Below, one piece after another: positions 772 through 37,180 of a DNA stretch of 39,540 bases. This DNA comes from Prevotellaceae bacterium (GTDB lineage: Bacteria; Bacteroidota; Bacteroidia; Bacteroidales; UBA932): contig JAITSM010000069.1 in assembly GCA_031287815.1 (NCBI GenBank), positions 1 through 39,540 of the forward strand, in the 5' to 3' direction. Below the pieces are notes generated by a model, which saw nothing but the letters and a program-made list of their open reading frames with translations, made no database searches and had not been told where the DNA came from. Numbering within the stretch: position 1 is the stretch's first letter; the number at the start of each line of letters is the position of its first letter. The position numbers and the translations under genes are program-made.

Positions 772-1008
772 TGCCGTAATTTTTTAAACCATTTAAAAAT
801 GGAACCAACCAGAACACATCCAACCCGAAAAACGAGCGCCGTATTTGCGTTGTTATTCATCATGGCCGGCGTGTTGCTATTGCTGTTTTGTGCCGTAATT
901 TTTTAAATCTTTAAAAATGGAACCACTCAGAACCCATCCCTCCCGGATATCAAGCGCTGTATTGGCGCTGTTAATCATCGTCGCAGGCGTGTTGCTGTTG
1001 TTGTTTAA
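771..1008 (+). repeat. 119-bp tandem duplication (x2) of the 5' UTR plus first ~30 codons of the 917..1684 gene
   Basis: Segments 771-889 and 890-1008 both begin gtgccgtaattttttaaa..aaaaATGGAACCA. They encode MEPTRTHPTRKTSAVFALL.. and MEPLRTHPSRISSAVLALL... Confidence 0.85.
799..906 (+). CDS. 35-aa upstream ORF created by the duplication (single TM-like peptide)
   Basis: It reads MEPTRTHPTRKTSAVFALLFIMAGVLLLLFCAVIF*, and its stop falls inside copy 2 of the duplicated 5' UTR. Translation is unproven. Confidence 0.25.
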   Translation: MEPTRTHPTRKTSAVFALLFIMAGVLLLLFCAVIF

Positions 1009-1684
1009 TGCGGGGTATTTGCCGGTTGTTTACAAGCCGGTGATTTTTTCATGGCAAATGGTACTCGTCGCGATAGGCCTTGTGTCTGTTTTTTCGCGCC
1101 CCAAGCGCATTCCCGGCGTATTCCTGATATTGTTGGGATTTTTGTTGCTGTTGCCCAAGCTGAACATAGACGGCCTGACCTGCCTGAAAGGCAACGGCTG
1201 GGCGATAGGCTTAATCGTCGGCGGGCTATTGTTGCTTTTCCGGGTTTTCGGCCCGCGGCGGCGTTGTTGCCGGATGGAACGCCACCGCCGCTATTTCCAC
1301 CGGCATTTTTCCACCGGCCCTTCCTCCAAAATACCGGAAGATGGGGAGGGCTATATGGCAAATTATGTTTTCAGCGGCGGGAAAGAGAAGATAACCTCGC
1401 AAAATTTTAAGGGCGGCGATATCAATTGCGTTTTCGGCGCCGCCGAAATAGATTTCATGGACACACAACTGGCCGAAGGGGAAAGTACGCTTACCGTTAG
1501 CGCGGTGTTTGGCGGCGTTACGCTCTATATTCCCGCCCACTGGAAGGTGGAACTCCGGCAGGACGCCATTCTCGGGCGAATGGAAGACAAGCGCGCGCAC
1601 CCTACCTTTGACGTCAATGAAAACAGGACGCTGATCATTAAAGCGTCTATGGTATTTGGCGGCGGCGAAATAAAAACGCGGTAA
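917..1684 (+). CDS. LiaF-like (cell-wall-active antibiotic response domain) membrane protein
   Basis: It has an N-terminal multi-TM region and a C-terminal soluble domain (..FGGVTLYIPAHWKVEL..). It sits directly upstream of a LytS-type kinase and a LytTR regulator. Confidence 0.6.
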   Translation: MEPLRTHPSRISSAVLALLIIVAGVLLLLFNAGYLPVVYKPVIFSWQMVLVAIGLVSVFSRPKRIPGVFLILLGFLLLLPKLNIDGLTCLKGNGWAIGLIVGGLLLLFRVFGPRRRCCRMERHRRYFHRHFSTGPSSKIPEDGEGYMANYVFSGGKEKITSQNFKGGDINCVFGAAEIDFMDTQLAEGESTLTVSAVFGGVTLYIPAHWKVELRQDAILGRMEDKRAHPTFDVNENRTLIIKASMVFGGGEIKTR

Positions 1685-1711
1685 AACGTTGCCGGACGTG
1701 CTGCGCAAGTT

Positions 1712-2776
1712 ATGGAAAAGAATCCCATTTTTAAAAATTATAAAACCAAAGGGCTCTACCTGTTCATCTGGCTGTGCATAATATGCGGGCAAATCCTGAT
1801 TATTAACGCCACTTCCAGCTATTCGCTGGAATATATTATTATCGAGTCGGTCGTGTTTAATTTTCTTTATGCCTCCCTGTTGATACCGGTGTGGTACCCC
1901 GTGCGCTTCAACAGATGGGAGCATAAGACCTGGCAGTTTAATGTGGTGGTGCACCTGCTGCTGGTGTCGCTGTTCATTTCCCTTTCGGCGCCGGCGGGGT
2001 ATTTCATCATGTGGCTGCTGGAAACGGACAACAACCGTTACATGGACTACCTGCAACTTACGTACGGGTGGAAAATCGTGCAGGGATGCACGTTTTACCT
2101 TGTTATGGTGCTGGTGTATTATTTGTACATTTATGTGGAAAAGCTGCGCGAAAAGGCAGCCAATGAAATCCGCCTGAACCGGCTGATAAAAGACAACGAA
2201 CTGAACCGCCTGAAATCGCAAATCAACCCGCATTTTTTATTCAACAGTTTAAATTCCCTCAATTCCCTAATTATCCGCCACCCCGAACAGGCACAAAAAA
2301 TGCTGGTGGAGTTATCCGATTACTTGCGCTATGCGGTGCTGGCGAACAATGCAATTTATGCTTCGCTGCAACACGAAATGGAAAATATTGAACGGTATTT
2401 GGCGATTGAGCAACTGCGCTTCGGCGAAAAACTGGTTTATGAACGAACAATCGACCCGGCTTGTTTGCCGTTGAAAATCCCGGCCATGCTCTTGCAGCCG
2501 CTGTTCGAGAATGCCGTAAAACACGGCGTATACGAAAGCCTCCAAACGGTTTATATCAACATATCGGCAAAGGCGGACGGGCAGCAGCTCGCCATTGTTA
2601 TCAGCAATAACTACGACGCCGGCAACGGATCGCAGAAAAAAGGCTCCGGCACCGGGCTGAAAAATATCCGCGAACGGCTGCGGCTGTCATACGGCGCCAC
2701 CGCATCGCTGCATACAAAAATGGAAGACGGCAAGTTTATAGCCATCCTGCAAATACCGGTGGACGATAAAAAATAA
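1712..2776 (+). CDS. LytS/YehU-family sensor histidine kinase
   Basis: It has a multi-TM N-terminus, the NPHFLFNSLNSL motif (His_kinase PF06580 type) and an HATPase region (LLQPLFENAVKHG, GSGTGLKNIRERL). Confidence 0.85.
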   Translation: MEKNPIFKNYKTKGLYLFIWLCIICGQILIINATSSYSLEYIIIESVVFNFLYASLLIPVWYPVRFNRWEHKTWQFNVVVHLLLVSLFISLSAPAGYFIMWLLETDNNRYMDYLQLTYGWKIVQGCTFYLVMVLVYYLYIYVEKLREKAANEIRLNRLIKDNELNRLKSQINPHFLFNSLNSLNSLIIRHPEQAQKMLVELSDYLRYAVLANNAIYASLQHEMENIERYLAIEQLRFGEKLVYERTIDPACLPLKIPAMLLQPLFENAVKHGVYESLQTVYINISAKADGQQLAIVISNNYDAGNGSQKKGSGTGLKNIRERLRLSYGATASLHTKMEDGKFIAILQIPVDDKK

Positions 2777-2781
2777 AAATT

Positions 2782-3579
2782 ATGAAAACAGCACAGGAAC
2801 CTGCGGCACAACCAATCGCTGCGTCCCATTCCCCCCTCTCCATCCTTATTGTGGATGATGAAACGCCCGCCCGAGAACTGATACGGCATTATCTGCAAAG
2901 CTACCCCGAAATAACCATTATCGGCGAAGCGGACAACGGCTTCGACGCCATAAAATTTATTAAAGAACGCCACCCGCAGTTGGTGTTCCTCGATATTCAA
3001 ATGCCGAAACTGACCGGCTTCGAGGTCTTGGAACTTATCGACGTTACGCCGGAAATTATTTTCTCCACCGCCTTTGACCAGTATGCCCTGCGCGCCTTTG
3101 AGCTGAATGCGGTGGACTATTTGCTCAAGCCCTATTCCAAAGAACGCTTCGACCGGGCGGTGCAAAAAGCTATGGCGAAAATCCATTCGGGAAACGACAG
3201 TCGCAGCAGCTGGCAAGCCTTCCGGCAGACGCTTGCCGCAGCGCCCGGCGCACTCACCCGCGTGGCGGTAAAAGACCGCCAGCAGATACACGTTATCCCC
3301 ACCGGCGAAATTACCTGCATCGAAGCCGACGGCGACTATGTGAAACTGCACACGGCAACCGGCGCATTCCTGAAAGAAAAAACCATGAAATACTTTGAGG
3401 CGAACTTGCCGCCGCAACAGTTTATACGTATTCACCGCTCGTTTATCGTCAATGTGGACGAGGTGGCGAAAATCGAACTGTTTGAAAAGGAAACCTACCG
3501 CGTGCACCTGAAAAACGGCGCCATCCTGCGCGCCAGCAGCACGGGCTACAAACTGCTGAAAGAAACAGTAAAGTTGTAA
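2782..3579 (+). CDS. LytTR-family response regulator
   Basis: It has a receiver domain (ILIVDDE...FLDIQMP) and a C-terminal LytTR domain (..IHVIPTGEITCIEADGDYVKLHT...FIRIHRSFIVN). Confidence 0.9.
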   Translation: MKTAQEPAAQPIAASHSPLSILIVDDETPARELIRHYLQSYPEITIIGEADNGFDAIKFIKERHPQLVFLDIQMPKLTGFEVLELIDVTPEIIFSTAFDQYALRAFELNAVDYLLKPYSKERFDRAVQKAMAKIHSGNDSRSSWQAFRQTLAAAPGALTRVAVKDRQQIHVIPTGEITCIEADGDYVKLHTATGAFLKEKTMKYFEANLPPQQFIRIHRSFIVNVDEVAKIELFEKETYRVHLKNGAILRASSTGYKLLKETVKL

Positions 3580-3944: not shown

Positions 3945-5165
3945 TTACAGTTGGCGGAAACAGCGAACGGCAGCGTTTTGTTGTGCTGCACGGCCGTGTT
4001 TGTATATTTGATCGCATGTATATGCAAGTCCGTCTTCGCGTAAATCGATTTGTAGACCATCTTCCCTGTTTTTGTCATTAGCGTACCATCCCTCAGCACT
4101 CGTAGTTAACTGGCCATTCGATACCGATCGTTCATTTGCGAATCCATAATAATCAAGTCGTGGTGAACAACTGGACGTCTTGGATCGTAGATATTGACAG
4201 ATTGTGGCATCCGATCCCATAGTTTTGGTCATGTTATCAAAATCATCAGTAACCGGCAATAACCATCCGGGTGGGCATATACCTTGTACATTGCCGGTAG
4301 AGCTACTTGACCCGCCGGCATAAGAAGCATATACTTGCGCCCATGGATAACTTCTTCCACATTCATCTTCCGTACAACCGCTCATAGCAGAACCTATAGT
4401 AGAACCATTATAGCTTGCTAATTTTACATTCTGCGCCAGCCACCACTTGCTATCTGACATCAATACAATCCTGTAATATTTGCTATCCCGGCTATCTTTT
4501 ATATAAGCTTCCCAATTCTTCGCGCCGCTGGTGCGTTGCTGGCAAAGGTGCGTAGCATCAATATATAAATCGCTTCCCTGATAAGGGCAGAAAATGCCCG
4601 GACAGTCTGTTTTATCTCTGATAGTAGTAGGCGTAATGGTCAATGCCGAAGTGGCAAGCGTTGTCCCGGTTACTGTTTGAGAGGTTGTGCCGTTTGCTGC
4701 TGCCAGGATAAACGGCGGCGTGCCACGCAAAGTATAAGTTCCGTTGTTCGCTGTTACATTCGGCGGGTAGTCGGAAACATAGGCGCACCAATTGAATTGT
4801 GCCGGCACATTGCTCAACGTTACGGTTACCGTAGCGTTGTATGTGCCGGAACTCCCTGACGTACCTTGCAGCCAAAAGCCTTTGTCGTTTCCTGTTTCCC
4901 GCGAAGGAGTGCCGACAGTAGCTATCGGCGTTCCGGAAACAGGCGCACGCATCCAACTGCCCAACGGCACATTGTCTACTATTGCCCGGTAATCTACAAA
5001 TACCCATACCTTGGAATTGTGTGTACCGGTACGCGAGCTATTCAACCATGATACATTAAATGTAACGGTGTTGCTTTTTGCACTAACCGGCGTAACTGTA
5101 ACGCCACTTTGCGCGCTTACGGCAACGCTTAAAAGCATTGCGAAAAAAAAGAAAAGTTTTTTCAT
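3945..5165 (-). CDS. Secreted paralog A: signal peptide, conserved N-domain and C-terminal Fib_succ_major (FISH)-type domain
   Basis: The signal peptide is MKKLFFFFAMLLSVAVSAQ. It shares motifs with 17389, 25678 and 37181 (V.TFxV.W...VWVxVD; FNWCAY.SDYPPN; YTLRGTPPF). The FISH hallmarks are WWLAQN, CPPGWLLP and the VRCFRQL end. Confidence 0.8.
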   Translation of the reverse strand: MKKLFFFFAMLLSVAVSAQSGVTVTPVSAKSNTVTFNVSWLNSSRTGTHNSKVWVFVDYRAIVDNVPLGSWMRAPVSGTPIATVGTPSRETGNDKGFWLQGTSGSSGTYNATVTVTLSNVPAQFNWCAYVSDYPPNVTANNGTYTLRGTPPFILAAANGTTSQTVTGTTLATSALTITPTTIRDKTDCPGIFCPYQGSDLYIDATHLCQQRTSGAKNWEAYIKDSRDSKYYRIVLMSDSKWWLAQNVKLASYNGSTIGSAMSGCTEDECGRSYPWAQVYASYAGGSSSSTGNVQGICPPGWLLPVTDDFDNMTKTMGSDATICQYLRSKTSSCSPRLDYYGFANERSVSNGQLTTSAEGWYANDKNREDGLQIDLREDGLAYTCDQIYKHGRAAQQNAAVRCFRQL

Positions 5166-5573
5166 AATATTTTTTATTAAAAGGTTTAATATTTTTCTCT
5201 ATGTTCTATTGTCTACAAGTCTATGTTCTGTTTTCGCAGCTTCAGGGTTGTTTTCAAACACAAACCTTTTTCATAAAACAACCCCTTACTGCGATTTTTT
5301 ATTCGCTGACAATTTGTATAACTTTTGTCTGTCTATATGGATTCTATCGAACAAAAATGAAACGTGAACTGATATTAACTCTCTTAAAGGTGTAGACAAC
5401 CTGGTGTAAAAGCCGACATCAACTCACGTTGAAAGATACGGCATTTATTCAGTTACACCTAAATTTGTCTACTCTTTAAGACTTGAACAAAAGCCATTGA
5501 AATGTTATTCAATCCCGATAAATAAAGAACATCATTACCGCTGCAAATATAAAACAATATTTTTAAATTCCAA
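5166..5573 (-). promoter_or_regulatory. Promoter plus ~370-nt structured leader (type II) of paralog A
   Basis: The -33 TTG (5571-5573) and -7 TATATTTG (5544-5551) are on the minus strand with a 19-nt gap. Stacked helices pair 5474-5480/5383-5389, 5465-5472/5392-5399 and 5453-5458/5404-5409. The conserved proximal hairpin is at 5236-5292. Confidence 0.6.
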
Positions 5574-5904
5574 ATATGTTTAAAAATTTTTTTTTAATTA
5601 TATGCTATTTGGAATATTTATGACTAAAAAATCTTGACGGTGTATCGCGAGCGGCCCGCCGTATGCCGTATACCGCAACCGGCTCCCCGCCCCCGCCTTT
5701 AGAAAAACCGCCTTGCCAAGCTTTAATTTTCTCACCCAATTTATTGCAACAACAAAAAACATTTTTGTTTCCGGGATGGGCTGCCTGTTGCCAAAATAAA
5801 ACAAGTTTGTTATCGTTTGTTTTTGTAAATTGAGCGCCTGTCTGTTCATAAAAAGGAGGCATGTTTTTTTGGCCTCTCCGGAAAAAATGCCTATCTTTGC
5901 CATG

Positions 5905-12330: not shown

Positions 12331-12340
12331 AGAACTTTAA

Positions 12341-12430
12341 ATATGAATTATGAATTATGAATTAGCTTGCGCCAGCAACCTCATACTTCATAACTCATAA
12401 TTCATACATCATAATTCATAATTATTTTGC
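12341..12430. repeat. 'Word' hairpin, ATGAATTAT/ATAATTCAT arms, GCGCCAGC core
   Basis: Sequence: atatgaattatgaattatgaatta-gcttGCGCCAGCaacc-tcatacttcataactcataattcatacatcataattcataatt. Confidence 0.8.
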
Positions 12431-12462: not shown

Positions 12463-12756
12463 ATGTCTTATTTAGAAGAAGTAAAAATGGGGTTAAGAGC
12501 GCTCAAGCCGGAGCTGTCCGTGAAATTTCACGTGCGCGCTATCGGTTTATTCGGCTCTATTGTCCGCAATGATTTTTCCCCATCCACCAGCGATATAGAT
12601 ATTATTGTCGATTTTTCGCAACCGGTAGGCGTAGAATTTATAGACCTTGCCGATTATCTGGAAAATAAATTCCACAGGAAGGTAGACCTCGTTTCAAGGA
12701 GAGGCATAAAACCCCTGTATTATTCCGCCATAGAGAAAGATATTGTTTATGTCTGA
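12463..12756 (+). CDS. mntA: MNT-type nucleotidyltransferase (type VII antitoxin MntA-like)
   Basis: It carries the GLFGSIVRNDFSPSTSDIDIIV minimal NTase motif and overlaps the downstream HEPN gene by 14 nt. Confidence 0.8.
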   Translation: MSYLEEVKMGLRALKPELSVKFHVRAIGLFGSIVRNDFSPSTSDIDIIVDFSQPVGVEFIDLADYLENKFHRKVDLVSRRGIKPLYYSAIEKDIVYV

Positions 12757-13081
12757 AAGAAATGCCGGAATATTATTGAACGACATCATCGAAAGCGGTG
12801 AAAAAATTCTTCACTACGTTCAAGGCTTAAGCTACGAACAATTCCTTGATGACGACAAAACTATTGACGCCGTCATCCGGAACTTTGAAATCATCGGGGA
12901 AGCGGCCAACCGCCTTCCCGACGGCTTTAAAGAAAGCCATCAGGAGATAGATTGGTATAGAATCAGGGGATTTCGCAACAGAATAGTACATCACTATTTC
13001 GGTATAGATTATAGCATCCTTTGGCAAATTAAAGAAACCTTTTTGCCGGAAATGTTATCGGCAATCAAGCAATTTATTTAA
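12743..13081 (+). CDS. hepT: HepT/DUF86 HEPN-domain toxin-like protein
   Basis: It carries the Rx4HxY motif (RNRIVHHY) and is about 110 aa, the usual DUF86 size. Confidence 0.8.
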   Translation: MFMSERNAGILLNDIIESGEKILHYVQGLSYEQFLDDDKTIDAVIRNFEIIGEAANRLPDGFKESHQEIDWYRIRGFRNRIVHHYFGIDYSILWQIKETFLPEMLSAIKQFI

Positions 13082-16527: not shown

Positions 16528-16643
16528 AAGTTAAGAACTAAAAGTTAAAAACTAAGAGTTGGCTGGCGCTAGCTAACTTTTAGTTTTTAACTTTTAACTT
16601 TAAAAAGGCGCCAGCCCACTCTCCATTTTCCATTCTCCATTGA
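16528..16643. repeat. 'Word' hairpin (AAGTTAAGAACT arms, GGCTGGCGCTAGC core) plus GGCGCCAGCC core and TCTCCATT arm
   Basis: Segment 16528-16601 is palindromic around ggctggcgctagc. At 16602-16642, the sequence aaaaaGGCGCCAGCCcactctccattttccattctccattg is complementary to 16853-16876, on the far side of the MITE-like copy. Confidence 0.75.
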
Positions 16644-16850
16644 ATAAGCCCGAAGGGCTTGAATTTTCATAACCCCATGCAAGTGCAGCGAAGCGTAACG
16701 CAGCATGGGGCAACATGGCACTTCCTGCTTTTCGCGCGGCGCACAGGTTTTCCGCTATGCATGGACAGTGCTCCGCGCGAAAGGCAGTAGGGTCTTCGTA
16801 CCCCCGCACTGCGTACGGGGTTATGAATATTTCGCCCCTTCGGGGCTTTA
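16644..16850. repeat. Structured MITE-like repeat, copy 2 (inverted relative to 291..506)
   Basis: Its reverse complement aligns with 291-506 along its length. The two internal hairpins differ in sequence but remain self-complementary (CCGCAGGC..GCCTGCGG versus CCCCG..CGGGG). Confidence 0.7.
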
Positions 16851-16916
16851 TTTAATGGAGAATGGAAAATTGAGAATGCTCGCCACCTTTCGGTAAAAAA
16901 ATTTTTCGAAAAAAAC

Positions 16917-17388
16917 TTGCAATTAAAAAATATTGTTTTATATTTGCACCGTTCTTTGACGTATTGAAAAGGATATAAAAAAAAATATCGCTTTAACTTT
17001 TATTCTGCGTATACTTCGAAATCAGGAAAATTTCAACTATGTCCGAATATAAGTCTGAGCAACCTCGCCAAGAGTGGATGGGGGTTGTAATACTTATCGA
17101 CATAGTGGGTTTCCTGAACCTCGAAGTATGATAAATATAACACCCCTTTCCACTTTTGGTTTTTTAGTGGAATTGAGAAAAAATCACCATAAAAGTTAAA
17201 GAAACAAATTGTAGAAAATGTGTGTTAAAATTTTCTGCAATGATTGGCAGCGGATAAAAATCGCAGCAGGGGGTTGTTTATAAAGTTGGTTTGTGTTTGC
17301 AAAACAGCCCCAAAGCTGCGAAAACAGAGCATAGACTTGTAGACAATAGAACATAGACAAAAATATTAACCATAAATAAAAAAATGCT
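16917..17388 (+). promoter_or_regulatory. Promoter plus ~440-nt structured leader (type I) of paralog B
   Basis: TTG (16917-16919) and TATATTTG (16939-16946) have a 19-nt gap. Helices are ATACTTCGA (17011-19)/TCGAAGTAT (17121-29), CAGGAAA (17023-29)/TTTCCTG (17110-16), CTATGTC/GACATAG and ATAAGT/ACTTAT. Loop CCAAGAGTGGA (17068-78) pairs with TCCACTTTTGG (17149-59), followed by T6. The proximal hairpin is at 17263-17319. Confidence 0.65.
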
Positions 17389-18306
17389 ATGAAAAAAAAT
17401 TTCTTTCTTTTCGCCATGCTTGCAAGCATGGCAGCAAACGCCACCGTAAAGGTAACGCCGCTTTCTACGGATTATTCCACCAACAAAGTAACCTTTAAAG
17501 TGGAATGGACTGGCACCCCCTCTGCGCCCCACAATAATCGTGTGTGGGTATGGATAGATTTTTGTCCGGTAGCAGGCACAACGCCGGCAACTTCTTTTTC
17601 TACCGCTACCATTTCCAACCCCGCTAAAACAGGCGGGAACGGCACGATTACCGGAGCCACCACGCGCGGATTTTTCATTGAATACAGCAGCGCCACCAAC
17701 GCCGGTACTACCGTTACCGCCACCCTGAGCAACGCCGCCGGCAAATTCAACTGGTGCGCCTACGGCAGCGATTTCCCGCCGAATGCGGTGGACAACTCCG
17801 GCGGCGGCTATGACTTGAGGGGCACGCCGCCGTTTATTATCAACGGCTCGATTGAATGGAGTTCCTACACTTATTCCGGCGGTACGATAAATACCCTCAC
17901 CGACGCTACCGGCTGTCCGGGCGTGTTGTGCGGCAAGGACGGCGAGTCGGCAGGATTATTGAACTGCTGCATTCCCGGAACAACGAATTGCAGCGGGACG
18001 TGTAAAACTACCGGGACATATACATCCAATGACGGCGCGTGCACCAATGCCTGCAATACTGCATATGTACAGGTGAGAAACCAATGCGGAAATGTAATAA
18101 ATGCGACAAGCAGTACATATTATAATAGTGGTTGCCGTATAGGATGTGCTGCGAGCTGGAGCCAAAGCTGCCGGGACTGGAACCAAGACTGTAGCTGGAT
18201 CATCGAAGAGCTTGACAAATGCCAATACTGCTGTACCGCCCAAGGATATCGGTACTATAATCTTGTTTCACGCGAGGGCTCTTCCGATTGTTCTTGTTGT
18301 AACTAA
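17389..18306 (+). CDS. Secreted paralog B: signal peptide, conserved N-domain and Cys-rich C-terminal module (no FISH domain)
   Basis: It shows MKKNFFLFAMLASMAANA, then VTFKVEWTG..NNRVWVWIDFCPV, FNWCAYGSDFPPN and YDLRGTPPFI. The last ~130 aa contain about 24 Cys and end in ..SSDCSCCN. Confidence 0.8.
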   Translation: MKKNFFLFAMLASMAANATVKVTPLSTDYSTNKVTFKVEWTGTPSAPHNNRVWVWIDFCPVAGTTPATSFSTATISNPAKTGGNGTITGATTRGFFIEYSSATNAGTTVTATLSNAAGKFNWCAYGSDFPPNAVDNSGGGYDLRGTPPFIINGSIEWSSYTYSGGTINTLTDATGCPGVLCGKDGESAGLLNCCIPGTTNCSGTCKTTGTYTSNDGACTNACNTAYVQVRNQCGNVINATSSTYYNSGCRIGCAASWSQSCRDWNQDCSWIIEELDKCQYCCTAQGYRYYNLVSREGSSDCSCCN

Positions 18307-23100: not shown

Positions 23101-23983
23101 GAAAGCCGACATTGTCCCGGCGCTGCTTTACGGGCACGGGCAAGCCATGTCGAAAAATGATTCCCTGTATTTGAAAGACGGCGTGCTGGCGACGAAAATC
23201 CTGCCCCGCATGCCCTACCGCGAAGGGGAAACGTACCAGGAACGGTACAAACAGGCGGCGCGCCTCTTTAAAAGGGAACATGCAGCGTTGGCCGATGAAA
23301 TAGACCGCTCCGGAAATCCCTACTACCGCTACAAGCTGATGAAAAACTACCTCTACAAGGGGCCTGTCCTCGAATGGTACCTGCGGGTAAAGGCGGCGAT
23401 GGAAAAGAATTACCGGCTGTTCGAGCAATTAGTCCCGGCAAAGGCCGTCATCACCGATATAGGCTGCGGATACGGCTTTTTGTCCTACATGCTGGCTTTC
23501 CGGTCGGGCGAACGGCGCATTACAGGCATCGACTACGACGCCGAAAAGATTGCCACCGCGCAAAATAACTTCTCCAAAACCGACCGGCTGCAATTCATCG
23601 CAGCCGATGCGTCGGCCTTCGCCTTCGCCCCTTCCGACGTATTTATCCTGAACGACGTGTTGCATTACCTGCCGGAAGAAAAACAGCACGCCGTGTTGAT
23701 GCAATGCGTAAAGAATTTGAACGCCGGCGGGAAAATCATCATTCGCGACGGCGACAGGGAACAGCGCAGGAAACATGCGCTCACCCAATGGTCGGAGTTC
23801 TTTTCCACCCGCCTGCTGAAGTTCAACCGGGCGGACTATGCCCTGCATTTCATCTCCACCACCTCTCTGGAAGCGTTTGCGCAACGCCACCACTTATCGC
23901 TGTCGATTGTGGAAAACAGCAAGTACAGCTCTAACAGGATACACGTGCTTAGCCGGGAGCCGGGAGTGAAGAGTGAAGGGTGA
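20120..23983 (+). CDS. Tri-domain fusion: MMPL/RND-like exporter, PlsC-type lysophospholipid acyltransferase and SAM-dependent methyltransferase
   Basis: It has two multi-TM bundles (about aa 270-410 and 680-800). The acyltransferase motifs are HX4D (NHQSVID) and FPEGTRS. The methyltransferase motif I is ITDIGCGYGFLSYMLA. Its start overlaps the GT2 stop (ATGA at 20120-20123). Confidence 0.8.
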   Translation: MIRIFIACYYFFRTRRILFYALGGLLTATMICLAWQIGWREDINSLLPQTEDTRSIGTVFKHVRVKDKIAVLITSRDTAHPAAPETMIQGCEAFFSRLLQTPAGRSHIRKVQSTVDSRLAESLHQYVMEQLPAFLDDAGYARLDSLLQPPQLEQQLAQQYSRLLSPLGMVSSKFIAADPLNLSGNILKSLEALEPDSRYALYDGHIFSDDKRYLAAFISPVFGAGELSRNEALVEEIERTIAAVEQQYPALSAAYFGGIPVGIYNARQIKSDAAAAMAVTALLIGLVIIFAFRRKSAVWLILLPVLMGGLFALALMYVIQGAISTIAVGAGSVILGVALSYSIHVFCHSLHAPSAEQLIRELAYPMTIGSFTTIAAFAGLAFMHTEALRDFGLFSCFTLIGTTLCCLVFMPHLLTFHRPPPRRLMRRIEKWTAYPFEKNGVLILLIVLVFGVSCFFCGKVTFNADMERLNYLPAPLAQAEKVLKDVFQGDAPTVYLVAVGATPDEALRHYRQAAEKCQSLKEASLIKDYSSAHHLLLPAAEQQERIDRWNAFWTPGKRAWLQTNLPAMAEKYKFKAHSFDGFLQRLDKDYQPVDYMQPGFLDTFVLNEWIEDAGGLPVAIIQAQLPEENKERVYQAFESDRHLVILDKTYFAGKFSTLVNEDFNALLFIVSVIVFLSILASYGRIEIAVVTFLPMLVSWVIILGLMALFGIEFNVINIIISTFIFGIGDDFSIFVSDGLLLEYKTGQKIIASHKTAIFFSAFAVIAGMGAMIFSKHPALYSISVTSVIGMLAILLISYTVQPFLFKLFITGRTAKRKFPHTWYSLLITVTALTVFVAGSLFLTLASYILFLLPVRKKAKQAFFHYLLYGFGFLQLYVMPNEKKVRQNPSRETFEKPAMIIANHQSVIDIMQALTWHPKIIMVTKAWVSRSPLFGKIARFAGFVDITKGYEPAVAHIRQYMDDGYSVVIFPEGTRSPDGKLQRFHKGAFYLAEALKADIVPALLYGHGQAMSKNDSLYLKDGVLATKILPRMPYREGETYQERYKQAARLFKREHAALADEIDRSGNPYYRYKLMKNYLYKGPVLEWYLRVKAAMEKNYRLFEQLVPAKAVITDIGCGYGFLSYMLAFRSGERRITGIDYDAEKIATAQNNFSKTDRLQFIAADASAFAFAPSDVFILNDVLHYLPEEKQHAVLMQCVKNLNAGGKIIIRDGDREQRRKHALTQWSEFFSTRLLKFNRADYALHFISTTSLEAFAQRHHLSLSIVENSKYSSNRIHVLSREPGVKSEG

Positions 23984-24106
23984 AGAGTGAAGAGTGAAGG
24001 GTGAAAAGGGTGAAGAGTGAAGAGTGAAGGGTGAAGAGTGAAGAGTGAAGAGTCACCCTTCACCGAGATACTCATCACCCATCACCCTTCACTCTTCACC
24101 TTTCAC
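23965..24106. repeat. 'Word' hairpin of GTGAAGA/GTGAAGG words and their complement, spanning two convergent stop codons
   Basis: The left arm (23965-24052) is gtgaagagtgaagggtgaagag... The right arm (24052-24106) is tcacccttcac...cttcactcttcacctttcac. The stop of the 20120 gene (23981-83) and the radC stop (24103-05) both lie inside the arms. Confidence 0.8.
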
Positions 24107-24804
24107 ACCCTCCGGTGTTCCGCGAAGCTATAAAAGTCATTGCCGGCAATAATGATATGGTCGTGAAATTGAATGTCGAGCAGGGCGGCGGCTTGCTGTA
24201 CCTTCCCGGTCAGGAGCAGGTCTTCGGAGCTGGGGTTCGCGCTGCCCGAAGGGTGGTTATGCACCAGAATAATCCCCGACGCCAGCTTTTCAATGGCCTG
24301 TTTCAATATCATCCGCGTGTCGGCGGCTGTGGCGTGAATGCCGCCCTGACTGATTTTAATGCGTTCCATCACGCAGTTGGCGCGGTTCAGGAGCAGCAGC
24401 CACATTTCTTCATGGGGCAGGTCTGCCAATAGCGGCGACATCAGCCGCACCACTTCTTCGGCCGCCCGTATCTTCGCACGCGGCGCGGCTTGGGCGGCGG
24501 CGCGCCGCCGCCCAAGCTCCAGCGCGGCAAGCAACGTAATAGCTTTGGTGGCGCCGATGCCTTTGATTTTTTGCAACCGGCTGCGTTCAATTTTCCCCAG
24601 TTCGTTCAGGTTGTTACCCGACAAGGCCAGTACCTGTTGCGCTACTTCCACCACCGTTTCGGAACGTGTGCCGGAGCGTAGCAGGATAGCAATCAATTCC
24701 GCGTCGGTCAGCGCGGCGGCGCCTTTGGCTATCATCTTTTCGCGCGGCCGGTCATCGGGGCTCAGGTCTTTTATTTTTAAGGGGCTCATAACAGGTTCTC
24801 CCAA
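24103..24804 (-). CDS. radC: RadC-family JAB-domain protein
   Basis: It has an N-terminal HhH region and the C-terminal JAMM motif HNHPSGSANPSSEDLLLT. Confidence 0.9.
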   Translation of the reverse strand: MGEPVMSPLKIKDLSPDDRPREKMIAKGAAALTDAELIAILLRSGTRSETVVEVAQQVLALSGNNLNELGKIERSRLQKIKGIGATKAITLLAALELGRRRAAAQAAPRAKIRAAEEVVRLMSPLLADLPHEEMWLLLLNRANCVMERIKISQGGIHATAADTRMILKQAIEKLASGIILVHNHPSGSANPSSEDLLLTGKVQQAAALLDIQFHDHIIIAGNDFYSFAEHRRV

Positions 24805-24976: not shown

Positions 24977-25064
24977 CATTCGTCCGATTAAGCCGGCATT
25001 GTCTATGCCGTGCTTTTCATCCCACCATACGGGTTCAACAACCCTTTTTCTTATTCCGACAATC

Positions 25065-25484
25065 AATTTAGGGGACTACATAAATAATTTAGGGGACTAC
25101 ATAAATAATTTAGGGGACTACATAAATGATTTAGGGGACTACCTAAATGATTTAGGGGACTACCTAAATGATTTAGGGGACTACCTAAATGATTTAGGGG
25201 ACTACCTAAATGATTTAGGGGACTACCTAAATAATTTAGGGGACTACATAAATGATTTAGGGGACTACATAAATGATTTAGGGGACTACCTAAATGATTT
25301 AGGGGACTACCTAAATGATTTAGGGGACTACATAAATAAATTAGGGGACTACATAAATGATTTAGGGGACTACATAAATGATTTAGGGGACTACATAAAT
25401 GATTCAGGGGACTACCTAAATGATTCAGGGGACTACATAAATGAATTAGGGGGCTACATAAATGAATTAGGGGACTACATAAAA
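25065..25484. repeat. 21-bp tandem array, ~20 units (consensus RATTTAGGGGACTACMTAAAT)
   Basis: The 420-bp array has an exact 21-bp period. Variant units occur in runs (ACATAAAT versus ACCTAAAT; AATTT, GATTT, GATTC, GAATT). There are no unique spacers. Confidence 0.95.
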
Positions 25485-25677
25485 TAGAGGAAGGACAAGT
25501 TTTTTGTACGGGGATTAAAATATGCCGGACGGCTTAGAACGCCAAAGCGTAAATCCAAAACAAAAAAACCAATGGCGGCAAAAAATGTTTGGTTGCCGAA
25601 GAACGCTTCGCCCTTGACGCTTTACCCTTCACCCTTGACGCTTTACCATTGACGCTTTACCGCTTCACTTACCTTTT

Positions 25678-26637
25678 TTATCTTACACACAATAATGGTT
25701 GATAGTAGTTTCTCCCGCAATTATTGATTTTCCACCATCTCCATTGCCCGCGATACACACCACATGACGTAGCTAGCAATTCACCAAAGTACCATAATTT
25801 CATCGTGGTGCCGCTGCAATCATTGCACACATGGTTATTCGACGCGCATCCATCGTTTATCCACGCACCGGTCGGGCCCTCTACACCCCAGATAGCGGTA
25901 CGCTCAGTGTTCATTATTTGGACTTCCGTAAGGGTCGGGTAGCGCCAACCGGATGGACAGCCGGTCGTACCATCACAGTTAGCATGTGAAGGCATGACAG
26001 CGTTTTTAATTTCTATTCCTAAACCAACATAAGTACTCGCTTCGTCAGCTATCGCATCCCTGCAATGAGTGCTAAACGCTATTAACCCTTCCACACATAT
26101 TCCGCCATTGTGTACTTCATCTCGTCCTACGCCTCCGGGACAGCCTGTCGCGTCGGTCAAAGAAGTAATAGTCGTTACGGCATATTTGTCATTATTTACA
26201 GTCGTACCATTTACAATAAACGGTTTTGTTCCTTTTAACGTATAGCTTCCGTTGTTATATGATATGGCGTTGGGCGGGTAGTCGCTGCCATAGGCGCACC
26301 AGTTGAATTGCCCTGCTGCGTTGTTCAGTTTGGCGGTAACGGTCGAAGGATTGGTGGTTACATAAAAGCCGCGCATATTGCCGGTAACGGTTAGTATACT
26401 GCCGGCGGTAGCCGTAGCCCCGCTGATAACGGCTTTTTCAAATGTGCCCGAAGAAGTTCCCGACACCGGGCACAAATCCACAAACACCCACACGCGGTCG
26501 TTGGCGACGTCGCCTGTCCATTCCACGCGGAAGGTTACGGTTTTGTTGATATAATCCGTCGAGAGCGGCGTGATGTACACATTGGCGCTTGCGGTTATGC
26601 CGGCAAGCATTGCTAAAAAGAAAATTTTTGTTTTCAT
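25678..26637 (-). CDS. Secreted paralog C: signal peptide, conserved N-domain and divergent FISH-type C-terminal domain
   Basis: I place the start at the internal ATG (MKTKIFFLAMLAGITASA). Motifs are VTFRVEWTGDVANDRVWVFVDLCPV, FNWCAYGSDYPPN, YTLKGTKPFI and CPSGWRYPT, and it ends in LLCVR. Confidence 0.8.
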   Translation of the reverse strand: MKTKIFFLAMLAGITASANVYITPLSTDYINKTVTFRVEWTGDVANDRVWVFVDLCPVSGTSSGTFEKAVISGATATAGSILTVTGNMRGFYVTTNPSTVTAKLNNAAGQFNWCAYGSDYPPNAISYNNGSYTLKGTKPFIVNGTTVNNDKYAVTTITSLTDATGCPGGVGRDEVHNGGICVEGLIAFSTHCRDAIADEASTYVGLGIEIKNAVMPSHANCDGTTGCPSGWRYPTLTEVQIMNTERTAIWGVEGPTGAWINDGCASNNHVCNDCSGTTMKLWYFGELLATSCGVYRGQWRWWKINNCGRNYYQPLLCVR

Positions 26638-26972
26638 AAAAATGTTTTTTAAGTTAATATTGTTTTTCGCAGCCTTTGGGGTTGTTTCCAAACACAAACT
26701 TTTTCCCATAAAACAACCCCTTGCTGCGAATTTTTATTCGCTGCCAATCCCCATCCGTTCCATTTTTACTTAAGGTACTATAGACAAAAAATGAAACGTG
26801 AACTTATTTTGCCGTGTATAGAGGTTCTGAGCAACCTTGTCACAAAAACAAACTAAATCCACGTTAGTTCATGGTATTCTCTTTGTGACAGTAGAAATTG
26901 CTCAGATTCCTATACACAGAAAAAAGAACGTTAATAACGCTGCAAATATATTACTTTATTTTTTAATTGCAA
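26638..26972 (-). promoter_or_regulatory. Promoter plus ~300-nt structured leader (type II) of paralog C
   Basis: On the minus strand, TTG (26970-72) and TATATTTG (26943-50) have a 19-nt gap. Helices pair 26910-17/26814-21, 26898-905/26827-34 and 26882-90/26838-46. Loop AACGTGGA (26858-65) pairs with TTCACGTT (26795-802), next to a U-tract (26786-94). The proximal hairpin is at 26669-26727. Confidence 0.65.
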
Positions 26973-28358: not shown

Positions 28359-28443
28359 AATTATGAATTATAGATTATGAATTATGGGTTATGAATTATG
28401 GGTTATGAGTTGGCTGGCGCCGGAGTTTATACTTCATAATTCA
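28359..28443. repeat. 'Word' hairpin (ATGAATTAT/ATGGGTTAT words, GGCTGGCGCCGG core)
   Basis: It fills the gap between the stop of the 28441 gene and the hisS start. The right arm overlaps the stop codon at 28441-43. Confidence 0.7.
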
Positions 28444-29826
28444 CCGGAATATATGCAGGCTGCCTTTGTATTCCGAAGTGTTGTACTGCACGCCGTCCCA
28501 GCCTTCGCCGTTAATTACGTAGTAATAGACGCCGTCGGCTGCGTTGCTGCCGGCGCCCATCCACTTGCCGTCCCAGCCCTGCCATTCGTCCAGGCGGCCT
28601 TCGTAGCGATACGCCAGCGCGCCCGAGCGGCTGAAGATATACACCTGGATATGTTCTATCGACTCCGGCTCTTTGCCTGTAACGAAGCGGAACACGTCGT
28701 TATAGCCGTCGCCGTTTGGCGTGAAAGCGTTAGGAATAGCGTCGGTGCTGAATTTCGACGGGGAAATAATCAGGCCTGTTTCCGTGCTGTCGGCGCAACC
28801 GGAGGCTGTATTGTAAACGGTTAAGCGCACGACATAGCTGCCCGGCACATAGCCGTCCACCCAATCGTTTTTGTACGGCGAATGAGGGGTTACCGGCAGG
28901 GGCGGCACGGTAGTGGAGTCGCTCCACATGACTAATTGCCCGTAATTTTTATTGGCGTCGCCGAAGCCTTTCCAGTAGTATTTGTCTGCATTCTTGCTCT
29001 TCTCCGAAGAAAACTGTACGCGGTATAACGCTTCGCCTTTCATGGGGTTCTCGGAGGCCGTTTCCCACCGGCCGTCCGCCCATGCTTCGGCGGTGATTTT
29101 TGCATACGCGGCAATGGCCGGCACGGTGTAGGGCGTGGTATAGCTGGCGCTTTTGCCGAACGCGTCCGTAACGGTTACGCTGTAGTTTGATTCTTTCAGC
29201 GGCGGCGGCGCGGCGATAATCGTGTTATAACTGTTGCCCCGCTGCTTCCACGATTCGTCGGCGCCTTCCACCCCTTCGTGGATATTTTCGCCGGAAGTCC
29301 ACCGGATAGCTTGCCAGCCGCTAAAAGTAGAATCGCCGGTATGCGACGGCGAATGTAAAAATTCTTCAAAATTATAAATGGTATAGCCGGCGCGCATCTT
29401 TGGCGTGGTCGTCATTTCCAATCGCAAACCGTTGCACTCGTTGAAGGAGGTGATCGTGTCGATTTTGAAGTTATCAAAAAACACCCAGCACGAAAACGCC
29501 GTGTCGCGCAACGTATTTTTGACCTGCACCCGGTACCCCCCGTCCATTGTAATCTCCAGCGAAGAAGCGGTTACGCCCGGCTCGTCTTTCTGTATAGTGA
29601 AACTTGCATCCGCCGGATTAAGCATCCGCCATGTGAACGTAGAAGCCTGTCCGTCGATGTCCCGCGCGGTTAGCGTGGCGGCGGTTTTGTCAAAAAAAAC
29701 AAATACCTGTTCCGGCTGCCCGGTCAGCCATTGTGTAGGTTTCACCGCATCGGGGCTCACGGCCGACAACTGCGCCGCCGCCGCCAATGGAACAAATAAA
29801 AATATCAGGGAAAAGTACTTTTTCAT
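28441..29826 (-). CDS. Secreted protein with T9SS type-B (gliding-motility C-terminal, CHU_C-like) sorting domain
   Basis: The signal peptide is MKKYFSLIFLFVPLAAAAQ. The C-terminal IPNAFTPNGDGYNDVFRF...GVYYYVI...GSLHIFR is typical of the TIGR04131-type domain. Confidence 0.8.
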   Translation of the reverse strand: MKKYFSLIFLFVPLAAAAQLSAVSPDAVKPTQWLTGQPEQVFVFFDKTAATLTARDIDGQASTFTWRMLNPADASFTIQKDEPGVTASSLEITMDGGYRVQVKNTLRDTAFSCWVFFDNFKIDTITSFNECNGLRLEMTTTPKMRAGYTIYNFEEFLHSPSHTGDSTFSGWQAIRWTSGENIHEGVEGADESWKQRGNSYNTIIAAPPPLKESNYSVTVTDAFGKSASYTTPYTVPAIAAYAKITAEAWADGRWETASENPMKGEALYRVQFSSEKSKNADKYYWKGFGDANKNYGQLVMWSDSTTVPPLPVTPHSPYKNDWVDGYVPGSYVVRLTVYNTASGCADSTETGLIISPSKFSTDAIPNAFTPNGDGYNDVFRFVTGKEPESIEHIQVYIFSRSGALAYRYEGRLDEWQGWDGKWMGAGSNAADGVYYYVINGEGWDGVQYNTSEYKGSLHIFR

Positions 29827-30122
29827 TTTTTGTAAAATAATTTACCCACGCGCCCGATATGTTCCATCAAATCGGGGTTGGTTAGCTGGTGGTAGATAGA
29901 CAAGTCGACGGTATAGGGAAGCAGCAGGTCGTCCAATGCCTGCGTCACTTCTGCGGCGACGGTTCCGTCCAGCCGGCCGCCGCGCATCGCCAGGTCGATA
30001 TCGGAATTGGCGCGGTAATTGCCTTTGGCGCGCGAGCCGTACAATACGACCTCTTCCACTTCGGGAAACCGTGCAAATACGCCGTGAAGTTTTTCAATAT
30101 CATTGTCCCGCAGCCCGAACAT
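29823..30122 (-). CDS. MNT-type nucleotidyltransferase (antitoxin-like)
   Basis: It carries the VVLYGSRAKGNYRANSDIDLAM motif. Its stop overlaps the start of the 28441..29826 gene (ATGA). Confidence 0.8.
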   Translation of the reverse strand: MFGLRDNDIEKLHGVFARFPEVEEVVLYGSRAKGNYRANSDIDLAMRGGRLDGTVAAEVTQALDDLLLPYTVDLSIYHQLTNPDLMEHIGRVGKLFYKK

Positions 30123-30529
30123 TATAGAAGCCCCTCCATCTTTTTTTCAAACTGTGTAAACAGCCGGAAATAGGTATGGGTGATTTTCGCCACTATCTCC
30201 TGTGCGACGGCTTCATTGTAGGTGTGTACCGAATCGATACGGCTACTTATCATCTCCATCCAATGGCGCCCGTCGTCGATGATACCCCTTTGGAATGCCG
30301 TACGGATAGCGTCGCGGCTTCCCATAATCGTTACGTGGGCTTGCTCGTATAGCAGATAATCTTTCATCACATTCCACGCCAATTCGTAGGTGTACTCAAA
30401 GGCCTGTATCAGCCCCTGCTGCTCCAGTTCGTTGAGCGTTTCTTTCTCGAAAAACTTGCGTAACTGCTCCAATGCTTTTTGGTAATTTGCAAATCGCTGT
30501 TTCCACCGTATATCCTGCGTTCCGGTCAT
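30122..30529 (-). CDS. HI0074-family NTase substrate-binding protein (HEPN fold, toxin-like)
   Basis: It has a [15 protein letters not shown] start and an Rx4HxY motif (RIDSVHTY). Its start overlaps the tyrS stop (ATGA at 30526-30529). Confidence 0.75.
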
Positions 30530-36732: not shown

Positions 36733-37180
36733 TTGCCATTAAAAAATATTGTTTTATATTTGCACCGGTTATTATGTGCTCTTTGACATTCTGAAATAGA
36801 TATAAAAAATATATATCGCTTTAACTTTTATTCTGCGGATACCAGAAATCTGGAAAATTTCAATCACGTACGAATAATAAGTAAAAGCAACCTCGCCAAG
36901 AGTGGATGTGGGTTGTTCTGCTTATTTACGTGATGGGTCTTCCAGAACCTCTGGTATCAATAAGCATAACGCCCATTCCACTCTTGGTTTTTTAGTGGAA
37001 TCAGGAAAAAATCACCATAAAAGTTGAAGAAACAAATTGCAGAAAACGTTTATTAAAAACTTCTGCAATGATTGGCAGCGGATAAAAATTCGCAGCAAGG
37101 GGTTGTTTTATAAAGTTGGTTTGTGTTTGCAAAACAACCCCAAGGCTGCAAAAATAATAACAATTTAAAAATTTACTTTT
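36733..37180 (+). promoter_or_regulatory. Promoter plus ~420-nt structured leader (type I) of paralog D
   Basis: TTG (36733-35) and TATATTTG (36755-62) have a 19-nt gap. Helices are GATACCAGA (36838-46)/TCTGGTATC (36950-58), CTGGAA/TTCCAG, CACGTA/TACGTG and AATAAG/CTTATT. Loop CCAAGAGTGGA (36896-906) pairs with TCCACTCTTGG (36977-87), followed by T6 (36988-93). Further hairpins are at 37037-44/37061-68 and 37092-37149. Confidence 0.65.

Follow-up and report, generated by a model that had tools for sequence, protein, structure and literature searches.

In the protein-controlled attenuators of the Bacillus type (trp/TRAP, pyr/PyrR, bgl-sac/LicT-SacY RAT, rplJL and infC), a 5′ leader between the promoter and the gene carries an antiterminator helix that shares a strand with an intrinsic terminator and its U-run, and the decision is taken during transcription. 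The classical trp attenuator follows a similar logic, with pairings 1:2 and 3:4 set against an alternative pairing. General descriptions of attenuation are available (PMC3064811, PMC4538822 and PMC1865079). We analyzed a stretch of 39,540 nucleotides (nt) from an uncultured member of the Bacteroidales, Prevotellaceae bacterium (assembly GCA_031287815.1, contig JAITSM010000069.1; hereafter the window, 39.5 kb with 50% G+C), in which the leader of a gene for a secreted protein, paralog A, has a comparable layout. Comparative analysis and predicted folds suggest that the region 5350–5541 on the minus strand is probably the sensor and decision part of a terminator/antiterminator attenuator that controls paralog A.

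The leader has no sequence or structure similarity to the Bacillus-type attenuators. Its predicted antiterminator is a four-helix hairpin of 100–125 nt whose whole 3′ arm becomes the loop of the terminator, and its four conserved segments exchange partners (segment 1 with 4 and segment 2 with 3, versus 1 with 2 and 3 with 4). It is also unlike them in having neither (G/U)AG-like binding-site repeats nor a conserved leader peptide, and in residing in uncultured Bacteroidales with dozens of copies per genome before one protein family. Competition between an antiterminator and a terminator in the leader is likewise described for ANTAR antitermination of the EutV/NasR type (PMC3369931 and PMC3369936). 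The ANTAR substrate consists of two short tandem hairpins with hexanucleotide loops, whereas the leader studied here folds into one long irregular hairpin, in which we saw no dual-hexaloop motif and which had no Rfam match. If the model is correct, the mechanism would belong to the known class of terminator/antiterminator leaders, and the architecture, host lineage, copy number and regulon would be new.

Four paralogous genes, A to D, are dispersed in the window among an ordinary Bacteroidales set of housekeeping genes (secA, hisS, tyrS, purD and purQ, recognized from the translations of open reading frames, ORFs). Paralog A (3945–5165, minus strand) encodes a secreted protein of 406 amino acids, in which the family N-terminal domain is joined to a FISUMP domain (TIGR02145) at the C-terminus; the other genes are B (17389–18306, plus), C (25678–26637, minus) and D (37181–38323, plus). 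Their proteins have a signal peptide and an N-terminal domain of ~170 amino acids in common and differ at the C-terminus, with the FISUMP domain (TIGR02145) present in A and D. The leaders lie between a conserved promoter block and the start codon, extend for 330–450 nt downstream of the promoter (roughly 380 nt in A) and comprise, from 5′ to 3′, a variable long hairpin, a T-rich tail and a conserved 3′ module (CGCAGNANGGGGTTG...GTTTGTGTTTG). We collected at least 57 leader copies, four of them in the window and the others 5′ of homologous secreted FISUMP-type genes in related uncultured Bacteroidales metagenome-assembled genomes (MAGs; loci are numbered with the prefix L). Our evidence comes entirely from sequence comparison and folding energies; because the copies are paralogs and orthologs of one another, counts of changes overstate the number of independent events.

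All copies share one order of elements: UUUUAUUC–[P1]GA–AA–[P2, 7 bp]–AAUUUCA–[P3]–GAAUAA–apical region–UUUAUU–[P3′]–GGGU(n)–[P2′]–ACC–UC[P1′]–AUAAAU..–tail–U-run. They fall into a short class, which includes A and C, and a long class, which includes B and D. We refer to the long hairpin formed by helices P1 to P3 as Fold 1. An initial annotation of the window had described the A leader as a three-helix hairpin and reported the complementary strings on the minus strand, all of which we located as described: CTTAAAG/CTTTAAG (5474–5480 and 5383–5389), GTAGACAA/TTGTCTAC (5465–5472 and 5392–5399) and GTGTAA/TTACAC (5453–5458 and 5404–5409). These helices correspond to P1 to P3 of the family, although P1 and P3 are each 1 bp longer than proposed. 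P1 pairs UCUUAAAG (5474–5481) with 5382–5389, P2 pairs GUAGACAA (5465–5472) with 5392–5399, and P3 pairs GGUGUAA (5453–5459) with 5403–5409. Between the 5′ strands of P2 and P3 lies AUUUA (5460–5464), the counterpart of the family consensus AAUUUCA; the ATTTAG/CAGG internal loop of A is thus the local form of the family's AAUUUCA/GGGU. The apical region had been read as an open loop. In the constrained fold it instead forms an apical antiterminator hairpin, P4 (5′ half at 5431–5442), with the pairs GCCG/CGGC (5439–5442 with 5412–5415) and UCAAC/GUUGA (5428–5432 with 5419–5423) around a GUGA loop, and its 3′ strand joins the tail pairing described below. The same arrangement of P4 is found in L032 and L061. 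The 3′ arm of the long hairpin (5382–5415) continues through CGGC, P3′ (5403–5409), AGG (5400–5402), P2′ (5392–5399), AC and P1′ (5382–5389). Near the 5′ end of the transcript, a GTTCTTT motif (5524–5530) is conserved in nearly all copies of both classes.

Covariation across the family identifies the Fold 1 hairpin as a conserved RNA structure, with pairing far beyond chance. We excised the strands of P1 to P3 from 49 copies solely by their distance from the conserved motifs and without an alignment, so no alignment freedom is involved. P2 paired at 7 of 7 positions in 47 of the 49 copies (2.1% in a non-cognate control), P1 at 8 or more of 9 positions in 38 of 49 (control, 4.9%) and P3 at 8 of 8 positions in 35 of 48 (control, 1.1%). 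Nearly every copy has its own helix sequences (35 distinct strands for P2, 46 for P1 and 44 for P3), yet the cognate strands pair almost perfectly. In a plain MAFFT alignment of 17 long-class copies, 94.7% of the cells paired, 24 of the 44 pairs changed on both sides, and compensatory cells numbered 123 versus 34.6 in shuffles; controls slid along the same alignment paired at 32–43%. The short class (31 copies, including A) had 135 compensatory cells versus 41.3 in shuffles. Among 55 copies aligned with a covariance model, and hence in a fitted alignment, 94.2% of the cells paired versus 65.0% in shuffles. Compensatory cells in the Fold 1 helices amounted to 608 versus 166 in shuffles. Furthermore, RNAfold recovered all three helices from the A leader.

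The initial annotation had also proposed that the leader of A shares its architecture with that of B and D despite having entirely different helices, and this was borne out by the promoter, the three helices and the positions of the internal loops. A covariance model built only from B/D-type copies found C, which was outside the model seed, from end to end (44.7 bits, E=2.3e-9) and, with filters off, also A (24.7 bits, E=3.6e-4), superimposing the helices of A on P1 to P3 of the model; these E-values are rough. Structure-aware superposition, whose failure the annotation had named as a refutation, succeeded. B, which was among the model-building sequences, scored 120 bits. The model has no branch points, and it retrieved 55 copies from 377 kb of family-flanking DNA. 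The window copies lie at 17009–17165 in B (plus strand; hairpin 17009–17132), 26785–26919 in C (minus strand; hairpin 26811–26919) and 36836–36993 in D (plus strand; hairpin 36836–36961).

Inverted repeats of this kind could function as DNA: they might be sites of recombination or inversion, form a cruciform or belong to a mobile palindromic element. Palindromic repeats are abundant between the genes of the window, and related MAGs have apparent DNA inversions upstream of family genes. However, G·U pairs strongly outnumber A·C combinations in every helix (25:2 in P1/P2), which places the complementarity on the sense strand only and argues that the selected pairing is that of an RNA rather than of a DNA repeat. 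The promoter lies outside the repeats, and the element was never found away from the promoter and the gene. An inverted 3′ arm was present in none of the 49 parsed copies; the apparent exceptions were L012, whose strands could not be extracted, and L061, in which 6 of 7 P2 pairs form. We consider a DNA-level role exceedingly improbable. Inversion between the loop and tail repeats was examined as a separate candidate and rejected on the same G·U/A·C asymmetry.

Copy-specific helices on a shared scaffold had been suggested to give each paralog its own regulatory address, read by trans-acting RNAs or other targets, so that the paralogs would be switched one at a time. The diversity of P1 to P3 and the resemblance of the gene family to a variable surface-protein family are compatible with this proposal. 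However, differing sequence with retained pairing is the ordinary signature of any conserved helix, and the differences between copies look like compensatory drift. Complements of the copy-specific helices were absent from the 39.5-kb window beyond each helix's own partner and short matches at chance level. Nor are the helices hypervariable, since some apparent counterparts from different MAGs have helices in common, all three in L016 and L029 and P1 and P2, but not P3, in D and L002. The arms are not displayed in Fold 1, where they pair with each other, and the elements that would decide termination are shared within classes and are not copy-specific. We found no support for the address proposal and consider it very unlikely. 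It is also not needed, because a second fold, ending in a terminator, explains the conserved scaffold.

This second fold (Fold 2) grows out of a loop-to-tail pairing that the initial annotation had identified in all four window copies, and we recovered it in each of them. The sequence pair is AACGTG/CACGTT in A and C and CCAAGAGTGGA/TCCACTCTTGG in B and D, as reported, and a third, AGAGCA/TGCTCT (AGAGCA/UGCUCU in the RNA), occurs in L076. The apical sequence of short-class copies, AAACGUGg/a, has the tail UUCACGUUUC as its partner; long-class copies have an additional apical helix whose loop, CCAAGAGUGGA, pairs with UCCACUCUUGG. In A, the strings AACGTGAG (5423–5430) and TTCACGTT (5361–5368), the latter followed by TCATTTTT, are present as described. 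The pairing is real, but it extends over 15 bp rather than 8 and is the core of a terminator-like stem. Its 5′ strand, AACGUGAGUUGAUGU (5416–5430), includes AACGTGAG and overlaps the 3′ strand of P4; its 3′ strand, AUAUCAGUUCACGUU (5361–5375), includes TTCACGTT; and three of the pairs are G·U. A U-rich tract, UCAUUUUUGUU (5350–5360), lies directly 3′ of the stem. Across copies, the loop–tail pairing is the core of a stem of 15–31 bp (19 bp in L032 and ~30 bp in B and D), which in the copies listed ends at a U-run (UUUUUU or UUUCNUUUUU) across three unrelated stem sequences. The terminator strands are at 17067–17098 and 17130–17159 in B, before the U-run at 17160–17165, and at 36895–36926 and 36959–36987 in D, before the U-run at 36988–36993; the tail of C (UUCACGUU, 26795–26802) is likewise followed by a U-run.

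The predicted duplex between the 3′ half of the apical region and the tail had a mean energy of −25 kcal/mol, versus −11 kcal/mol for shuffled tails, in 48 copies with three unrelated sequence pairs. In A the values were −20.8 versus −11.3 kcal/mol; the duplex reached −37.9 kcal/mol in B and −41.0 kcal/mol in D, and the listed stems spanned −15 to −41 kcal/mol. Combining apical and tail sequences across classes brought the energy to the level of shuffled tails. Within classes, cognate duplexes had a moderate gain over non-cognate ones (−31.9 versus −25.4 and −20.6 versus −15.5 kcal/mol) in a test in which two short-class copies were misfiled, and we relied on the alignment-based counts instead. 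These counts were made on alignments not fitted to Fold 2. In the long class, 15 pairs of Fold 2 changed on both sides versus 7.0 ± 1.8 in shuffles (0 of 500), 11 of them within a 29-bp terminator stem. In the short class (31 copies, including A), 10 pairs did so versus 5.6 ± 1.4 (1 of 500), with 34 compensatory cells versus 12.6 in shuffles. The ratio of G·U to A·C in the terminator stem was 81:12 and 58:5. Left unconstrained, RNAalifold picked the terminator stem in both classes and, in the long class, also a 5′ hairpin formed by the conserved blocks GCUUUAACUUUUAUUC and GAAUAAUAAGUAAAAGC. Compensatory changes in this 5′ hairpin include those at columns 11–83 and 25–68 (CG:16 and UA:1 in each), where a single sequence changes both sides of columns that are otherwise invariant. 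The GAAAU/AUUUC hairpin of Fold 2 is weakly supported, with 90.6% of cells pairing and no both-sided changes in the long class; compensatory variants are visible by eye, for example UAAA/UUUA in A. A further candidate helix, between the tail of the long-class hairpin and the downstream AGUGGAA, was rejected as a selected pairing; by inspection the tail covaries with the apical loop and not with AGUGGAA, and the duplex z-scores were weak.

The terminator stem and the long hairpin compete for the same nucleotides. P4 and P3b contribute their 3′ strands to the 5′ side of the terminator stem, and the 3′ strand of P0, the basal helix, is part of the other side. Because the stem thus shares strands with both the apical and the basal helices of the hairpin, the two folds are mutually exclusive. 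In the terminator fold of A, the entire segment 5382–5415 becomes a loop of ~40 nt with a small AGGU/ACCU hairpin (5399–5402 with 5388–5391). Comparative analysis shows that both sets of helices exist, covary and share strands, and that the terminator stem abuts a U-run.

The exchange of partners between folds bears on whether the leader is a metabolite-binding riboswitch, with the internal loops of the hairpin as aptamer and the terminator as expression platform. Riboswitch expression platforms also combine a structured leader and covarying helices with a competing terminator, the overall logic would be the same as that of the attenuator model, and conserved unpaired nucleotides are flanked by covarying helices here too. 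However, the Fold 1 internal loops (GAAA..AAUUUCA, GGGU..ACCUC and UUUAUUC..GAAUAA..UUAUU..AAUAAG) owe much of their conservation to their role as helices of Fold 2 (UUAUUC/GAAUAA, GAAA/UUUC, GGGU/ACCU and UUAUU/AAUAAG). Essentially all of the conserved loop nucleotides appear to be accounted for in this way, and the conserved motifs that Fold 2 pairing leaves unaccounted for are GUUCUUU, at the 5′ end, and GUUUGUGUUUG. The hairpin is single and unbranched, without a multi-helix junction, and the regulated genes encode dozens of secreted surface-type proteins rather than metabolic or transport functions. Rfam 15 gave only one transfer RNA at gathering thresholds over the whole window and, for the A and D leaders, no match of note even at E<=10 (best scores of 10–18 bits versus thresholds of 35–114). 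We consider a riboswitch distinctly unlikely.

A second question is whether the loop–tail pairing could be a static pseudoknot or long-range helix that shapes or stabilizes the 5′ end of the mRNA, or affects its translation, next to an incidental U-run. The apical loop of the short class (~25 nt) is large enough for such a pairing to coexist with P1 to P3. Fold 1 is, furthermore, usually the more stable structure. We compared folding energies in 48 copies with P2 either forced to form (Fold 1) or its 3′ strand held unpaired (Fold 2), and obtained means of −51.4 and −45.4 kcal/mol, respectively; Fold 2 was favoured in 6 copies and came within 5 kcal/mol in 13. The two folds of A are nearly isoenergetic (−46.5 versus −45.9 kcal/mol). 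Minimum-energy folds use the terminator stem in B and D and the hairpin in A and C. Against a static role, the complementarity runs beyond the loop into the 3′ strands of P4, P3b and P0, the additional pairs also have compensatory changes (columns 105–123 with 157–174), and a stem of that length is incompatible with the long hairpin. The U-run that follows the stem in the copies listed, whichever of the three unrelated sequences the stem has, also speaks against it. We regard a static pairing as improbable.

The attenuator model is consistent with the position of the element in a 5′ leader, with its stable stem followed by a U-tract and with the alternative helix that shares a strand with the terminator. 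In Fold 1, the long hairpin of P1 to P3 with the apical P4 would form and leave the tail AUAUCAGUUCACGUU single-stranded or otherwise engaged, and RNA polymerase would read through the U-run into the gene. In Fold 2, the hairpin would be split and its 5′ arm would fold back on itself; 5416–5430 could then pair with 5361–5375 to give a 15-bp stem which, followed by UCAUUUUU, would constitute an intrinsic terminator and stop transcription ahead of the gene. The model thus predicts both termination at the U-run and a regulated choice between the folds.

Several observations weigh against the attenuator model. The terminator loop is long (~40–75 nt), unlike that of textbook terminators, and a simple terminator scan did not call the terminator because the enclosed loop is 40–75 nt. 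In the short class, 1–4 nt separate the stem from the U-run. Nearest-neighbour energies favour Fold 1 by ~6 kcal/mol on average in the 48 copies, and in the absence of a factor the modelled default could be constant read-through. Within each class the strands of Fold 2 vary little, which keeps its covariation modest. In the short class, geometry may also permit a static loop–tail pseudoknot that coexists with P1 to P3.

If a factor sets the choice between the folds, we infer that it is common to the whole family and is most plausibly an RNA-binding protein that recognizes conserved motifs of the 5′ arm. A family-wide RNA-binding factor is favoured because the variable helices carry no conserved information, because the conserved nucleotides are explained by the alternative fold and because no leader peptide is conserved. 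We saw no UpxY-like or UpxZ-like gene adjoining the paralogs, and no candidate regulator gene was evident next to them in the window. Genes for a LiaF-like membrane protein, a LytS-type histidine kinase and a LytTR response regulator (917–3579) adjoin the 3′ end of paralog A; we found no link between them and the leader. A leader-peptide attenuator was considered separately and rejected: A has an 8-codon ORF (ATGATGTTC...), but the ATG is missing from B, C, L006 and many other copies (CCGTTC, AACGTTC, ACGTTC).

Downstream of the U-run, the conserved 3′ module (5236–5310 in A, minus strand) consists of a small upstream hairpin and two helices, S1 and S2. S1 pairs GCAGU (5288–5292) with GCUGC (5236–5240), and S2 pairs GGGGUUGUUUU (5275–5285) with AAAACAACCCU (5244–5254) around a loop that carries GUUUGUGUUUG, nearly invariant in 42 aligned copies. 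Both helices covary (CG:21/UA:19 at one pair of S1 and GC:23/AU:10/GU:8 at one pair of S2). The upstream hairpin (GUCAGCGAA.../...UCGCAGU), which competes with S1 for the strand CG(C/U)AGC, is more weakly supported. A pattern for the module matched four sites in the window (5236–5310, 17244–17328, 26662–26747 and 37072–37156) and none in shuffled sequence. The covariation of S1 and S2, with many G·U pairs, implies that RNA is made across the terminator and, thus, that read-through transcripts are functional.

Upstream of the hairpin lies the promoter-like block shared by A to D. Promoters of the Bacteroidetes have a consensus of TTTG at −33 and TAnnTTTG at −7, and the block in A (5542–5575, minus strand) has a −7 box, TATATTTG, at 5544–5551 with a TTTG-type −33 element ~19–20 nt upstream. 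The block, AAAAATATTGTTTTATATTTGCA, is identical in A, B and D; the variant in C, AAAAATAAAGTAATATATTTGCA, differs at four positions, all of them N positions of the pattern, consistent with the earlier claim that one promoter precedes the leaders. The window contains four matches to the pattern, and shuffled sequence none. By its match to the consensus, we consider the block a putative Bacteroidetes-type promoter.

The unit from promoter to U-run resembles a complete small-RNA gene of 190–230 nt, with a 5′ hairpin and a terminator hairpin (Fold 2). It could therefore be a stand-alone gene, with the paralog transcribed from its own promoter downstream, for example around GTTTGTGTTTG, which is invariant and loosely like a −7 box. 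However, the 5′ strands of S1 and S2 lie upstream of this putative internal promoter and covary with many G·U pairs, which points to one RNA made from upstream. When we read through the leader listings, for which no motif scan was run, no clear TAnnTTTG box was apparent from the U-run to the start codon. The unit was found only directly upstream of family genes, and terminated leaders may accumulate merely as by-products. A separate small-RNA gene is, in our judgment, unlikely.

Additional repeats surround the 3′ module. Many short-class leaders (in the window around 26750–26765, and in L047, L017, L006 and L030) have a second copy of the apical sequence, GAAAyyGUGAAA, 8–16 nt before the module. 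This repeat is missing from the subclass of A; its complementarity to the terminator tail has z-scores between −2 and −4 in 14 of 48 copies. Long-class leaders have AGUGGAAU right after the U-run. Either sequence may re-pair the tail in read-through transcripts. Within the window, only A and B have an additional segment, CAGAACATAGACTTGTAGACAATAGAACATAGA, between the 3′ module and the ATG (5190–5232 and 17325–17365), and similar CATAGAC-rich inserts were noted by eye in L002 and L018. The segment contains GTAGACAA, identical to the 5′ strand of P2 in A; the match is probably fortuitous, given that the insert is the same in B, where P2 differs.

A protein-guided scan of representative genomes returned 76 loci, with up to ~25 family loci from one MAG, and all of them came from uncultured MAGs labelled "Prevotellaceae bacterium" or "Bacteroidales bacterium"; a protein search gave at least 483 homologs with source labels of the same kind. 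Hidden Markov models (HMMs) matched the promoter in 35 places and the 3′ module in 52 places in the loci and the window. Among the 57 family genes preceded by 500 nt or more of sequence, 47 have the module upstream, where it usually ends 24–31 nt before the ATG. The first ORF after every leader is either a family gene or a lipoprotein-like ORF of 51–63 amino acids (MKKILLFLCLLLLAASCATQKQ...). The latter comes first in five loci (L014, L040, L051, L055 and L020); in L014, the only locus of the five whose coordinates we checked, a family gene comes shortly after it. In the family-flanking DNA searched, the element was seen solely upstream of family genes, and the leader was absent from L046 and L053, two loci of more distant MAGs. 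It is known here from the window and a few related MAGs only. The MAGs Cc175_bin61, Cd354_bin9, Pcl387_bin40 and Kf353_bin101 have the leader, and the related Nc350_bin165 and Cd354_bin121 do not. A metagenome scan with the 3′-module pattern GGGGTTGTTTN{5,16}GTTTGTGTTTG gave 47 matches, all of them spurious G/T-rich sequences and none matching the leader HMMs; because the pattern was exact, the lack of added copies says little about diverged relatives. Literature searches on the protein family in termites and on attenuation in Bacteroidetes returned general attenuation papers only. The leader RNA is undescribed, in that it is unmatched in Rfam 15 and in the literature searched. In L069, the entire promoter–leader unit is tandemly duplicated upstream of one family gene (2503–2623 and 2786–2898); each copy has a shorter and different 3′ part (GCUAC...GUAGC), and a truncated gene start, ATGAAAAAATTATTC, follows the first. 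This duplication suggests that the switch is modular.

The window contains other repeats. About 27 tandem copies of a 21-nt repeat (24982–25567) lie inside an ORF (24999–25487) whose Pfam matches were only low-complexity and collagen-like, and GTGAAGA heptamer arrays arranged as a palindrome (23952–24120) adjoin this region. An intergenic element of ~340 nt is present twice in inverted orientation (178–517 and 16529–16876). In this element, 7-nt repeats (AGTTAAG/AACTAAG) surround the palindrome GGCTGGCGCCAGCC, and GCCCCTTCGGGGC hairpins are also present; smaller relatives are found at 12332–12407 and 28375–28421 and also within the L124 leader. Two gene pairs encode nucleotidyltransferase/HepT-like toxin-antitoxin systems of the MntA-HepT type (12463–13081, plus strand, and 29823–30529, minus strand).

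Large families of surface products that are individually switched are a feature of the Bacteroidales, as exemplified by phase-variable structures with invertible promoters and by the UpxY/UpxZ capsule loci. Capsule loci of Bacteroides have a long 5′ untranslated region that is targeted by antitermination through the NusG-like UpxY. UpxY acts on elongation complexes and not via a defined terminator/antiterminator pair, and the promoter in the window is fixed, with the predicted switch at the level of the RNA. Family members in related MAGs are preceded by what looks like an invertible promoter in one case and by a heptamer repeat in another. In L053, from a more distant MAG without the leader, perfect 30-nt inverted repeats (TTACTTCTGATAATATACATTATCGGAAGT and its complement; 2689–2911) flank 163 nt at ~90 nt upstream of a family gene (ATG at 3003) and enclose a −7-like box, TAATTTTG, on the opposite strand. 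By sequence, the arrangement looks like an invertible promoter caught in the OFF orientation. In L046, from another MAG without the leader, 17.4 perfect tandem GCACAGC heptamers (2718–2839) lie ~160 nt upstream of a family gene and could be a slipped-strand contingency tract; further 7-nt repeats (AGTTCAT) occupy 2491–2557. These two arrangements make individually variable expression of family members plausible.

The leader itself might be an RNA-level phase-variation device, a kinetically bistable switch that commits each transcript, or each cell via feedback, to termination or read-through, with RNA in the place of the DNA inversion or repeat slippage of its relatives in L053 and L046. We consider this a long shot. 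If true, it would mean that the arms of more than 25 co-resident copies are kept orthogonal so that terminated leaders avoid cross-pairing with other nascent transcripts. Terminated leaders might also act in trans on members of the same loop/tail class and lead to class-wise or mutually exclusive expression.

Should the attenuator model hold, the leader would represent a new family of structured leader RNAs, for which the comparative support is already unusually clean, with no fewer than 57 copies and two covarying folds that exclude each other. To our knowledge, terminator/antiterminator control is poorly documented in the phylum Bacteroidetes. The four conserved segments, which swap partners around three helices that are free to vary, would be a compact natural example of an RNA switch, and the many natural variants could be used directly for the study of co-transcriptional folding. 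The leader precedes the genes of a hugely expanded family of secreted and probably surface-exposed proteins in uncultured Bacteroidales, and it would point to a family-wide regulator. Together with the invertible-promoter-like and repeat-tract arrangements of related MAGs, the leader suggests strong selection for switchable expression of this protein family.

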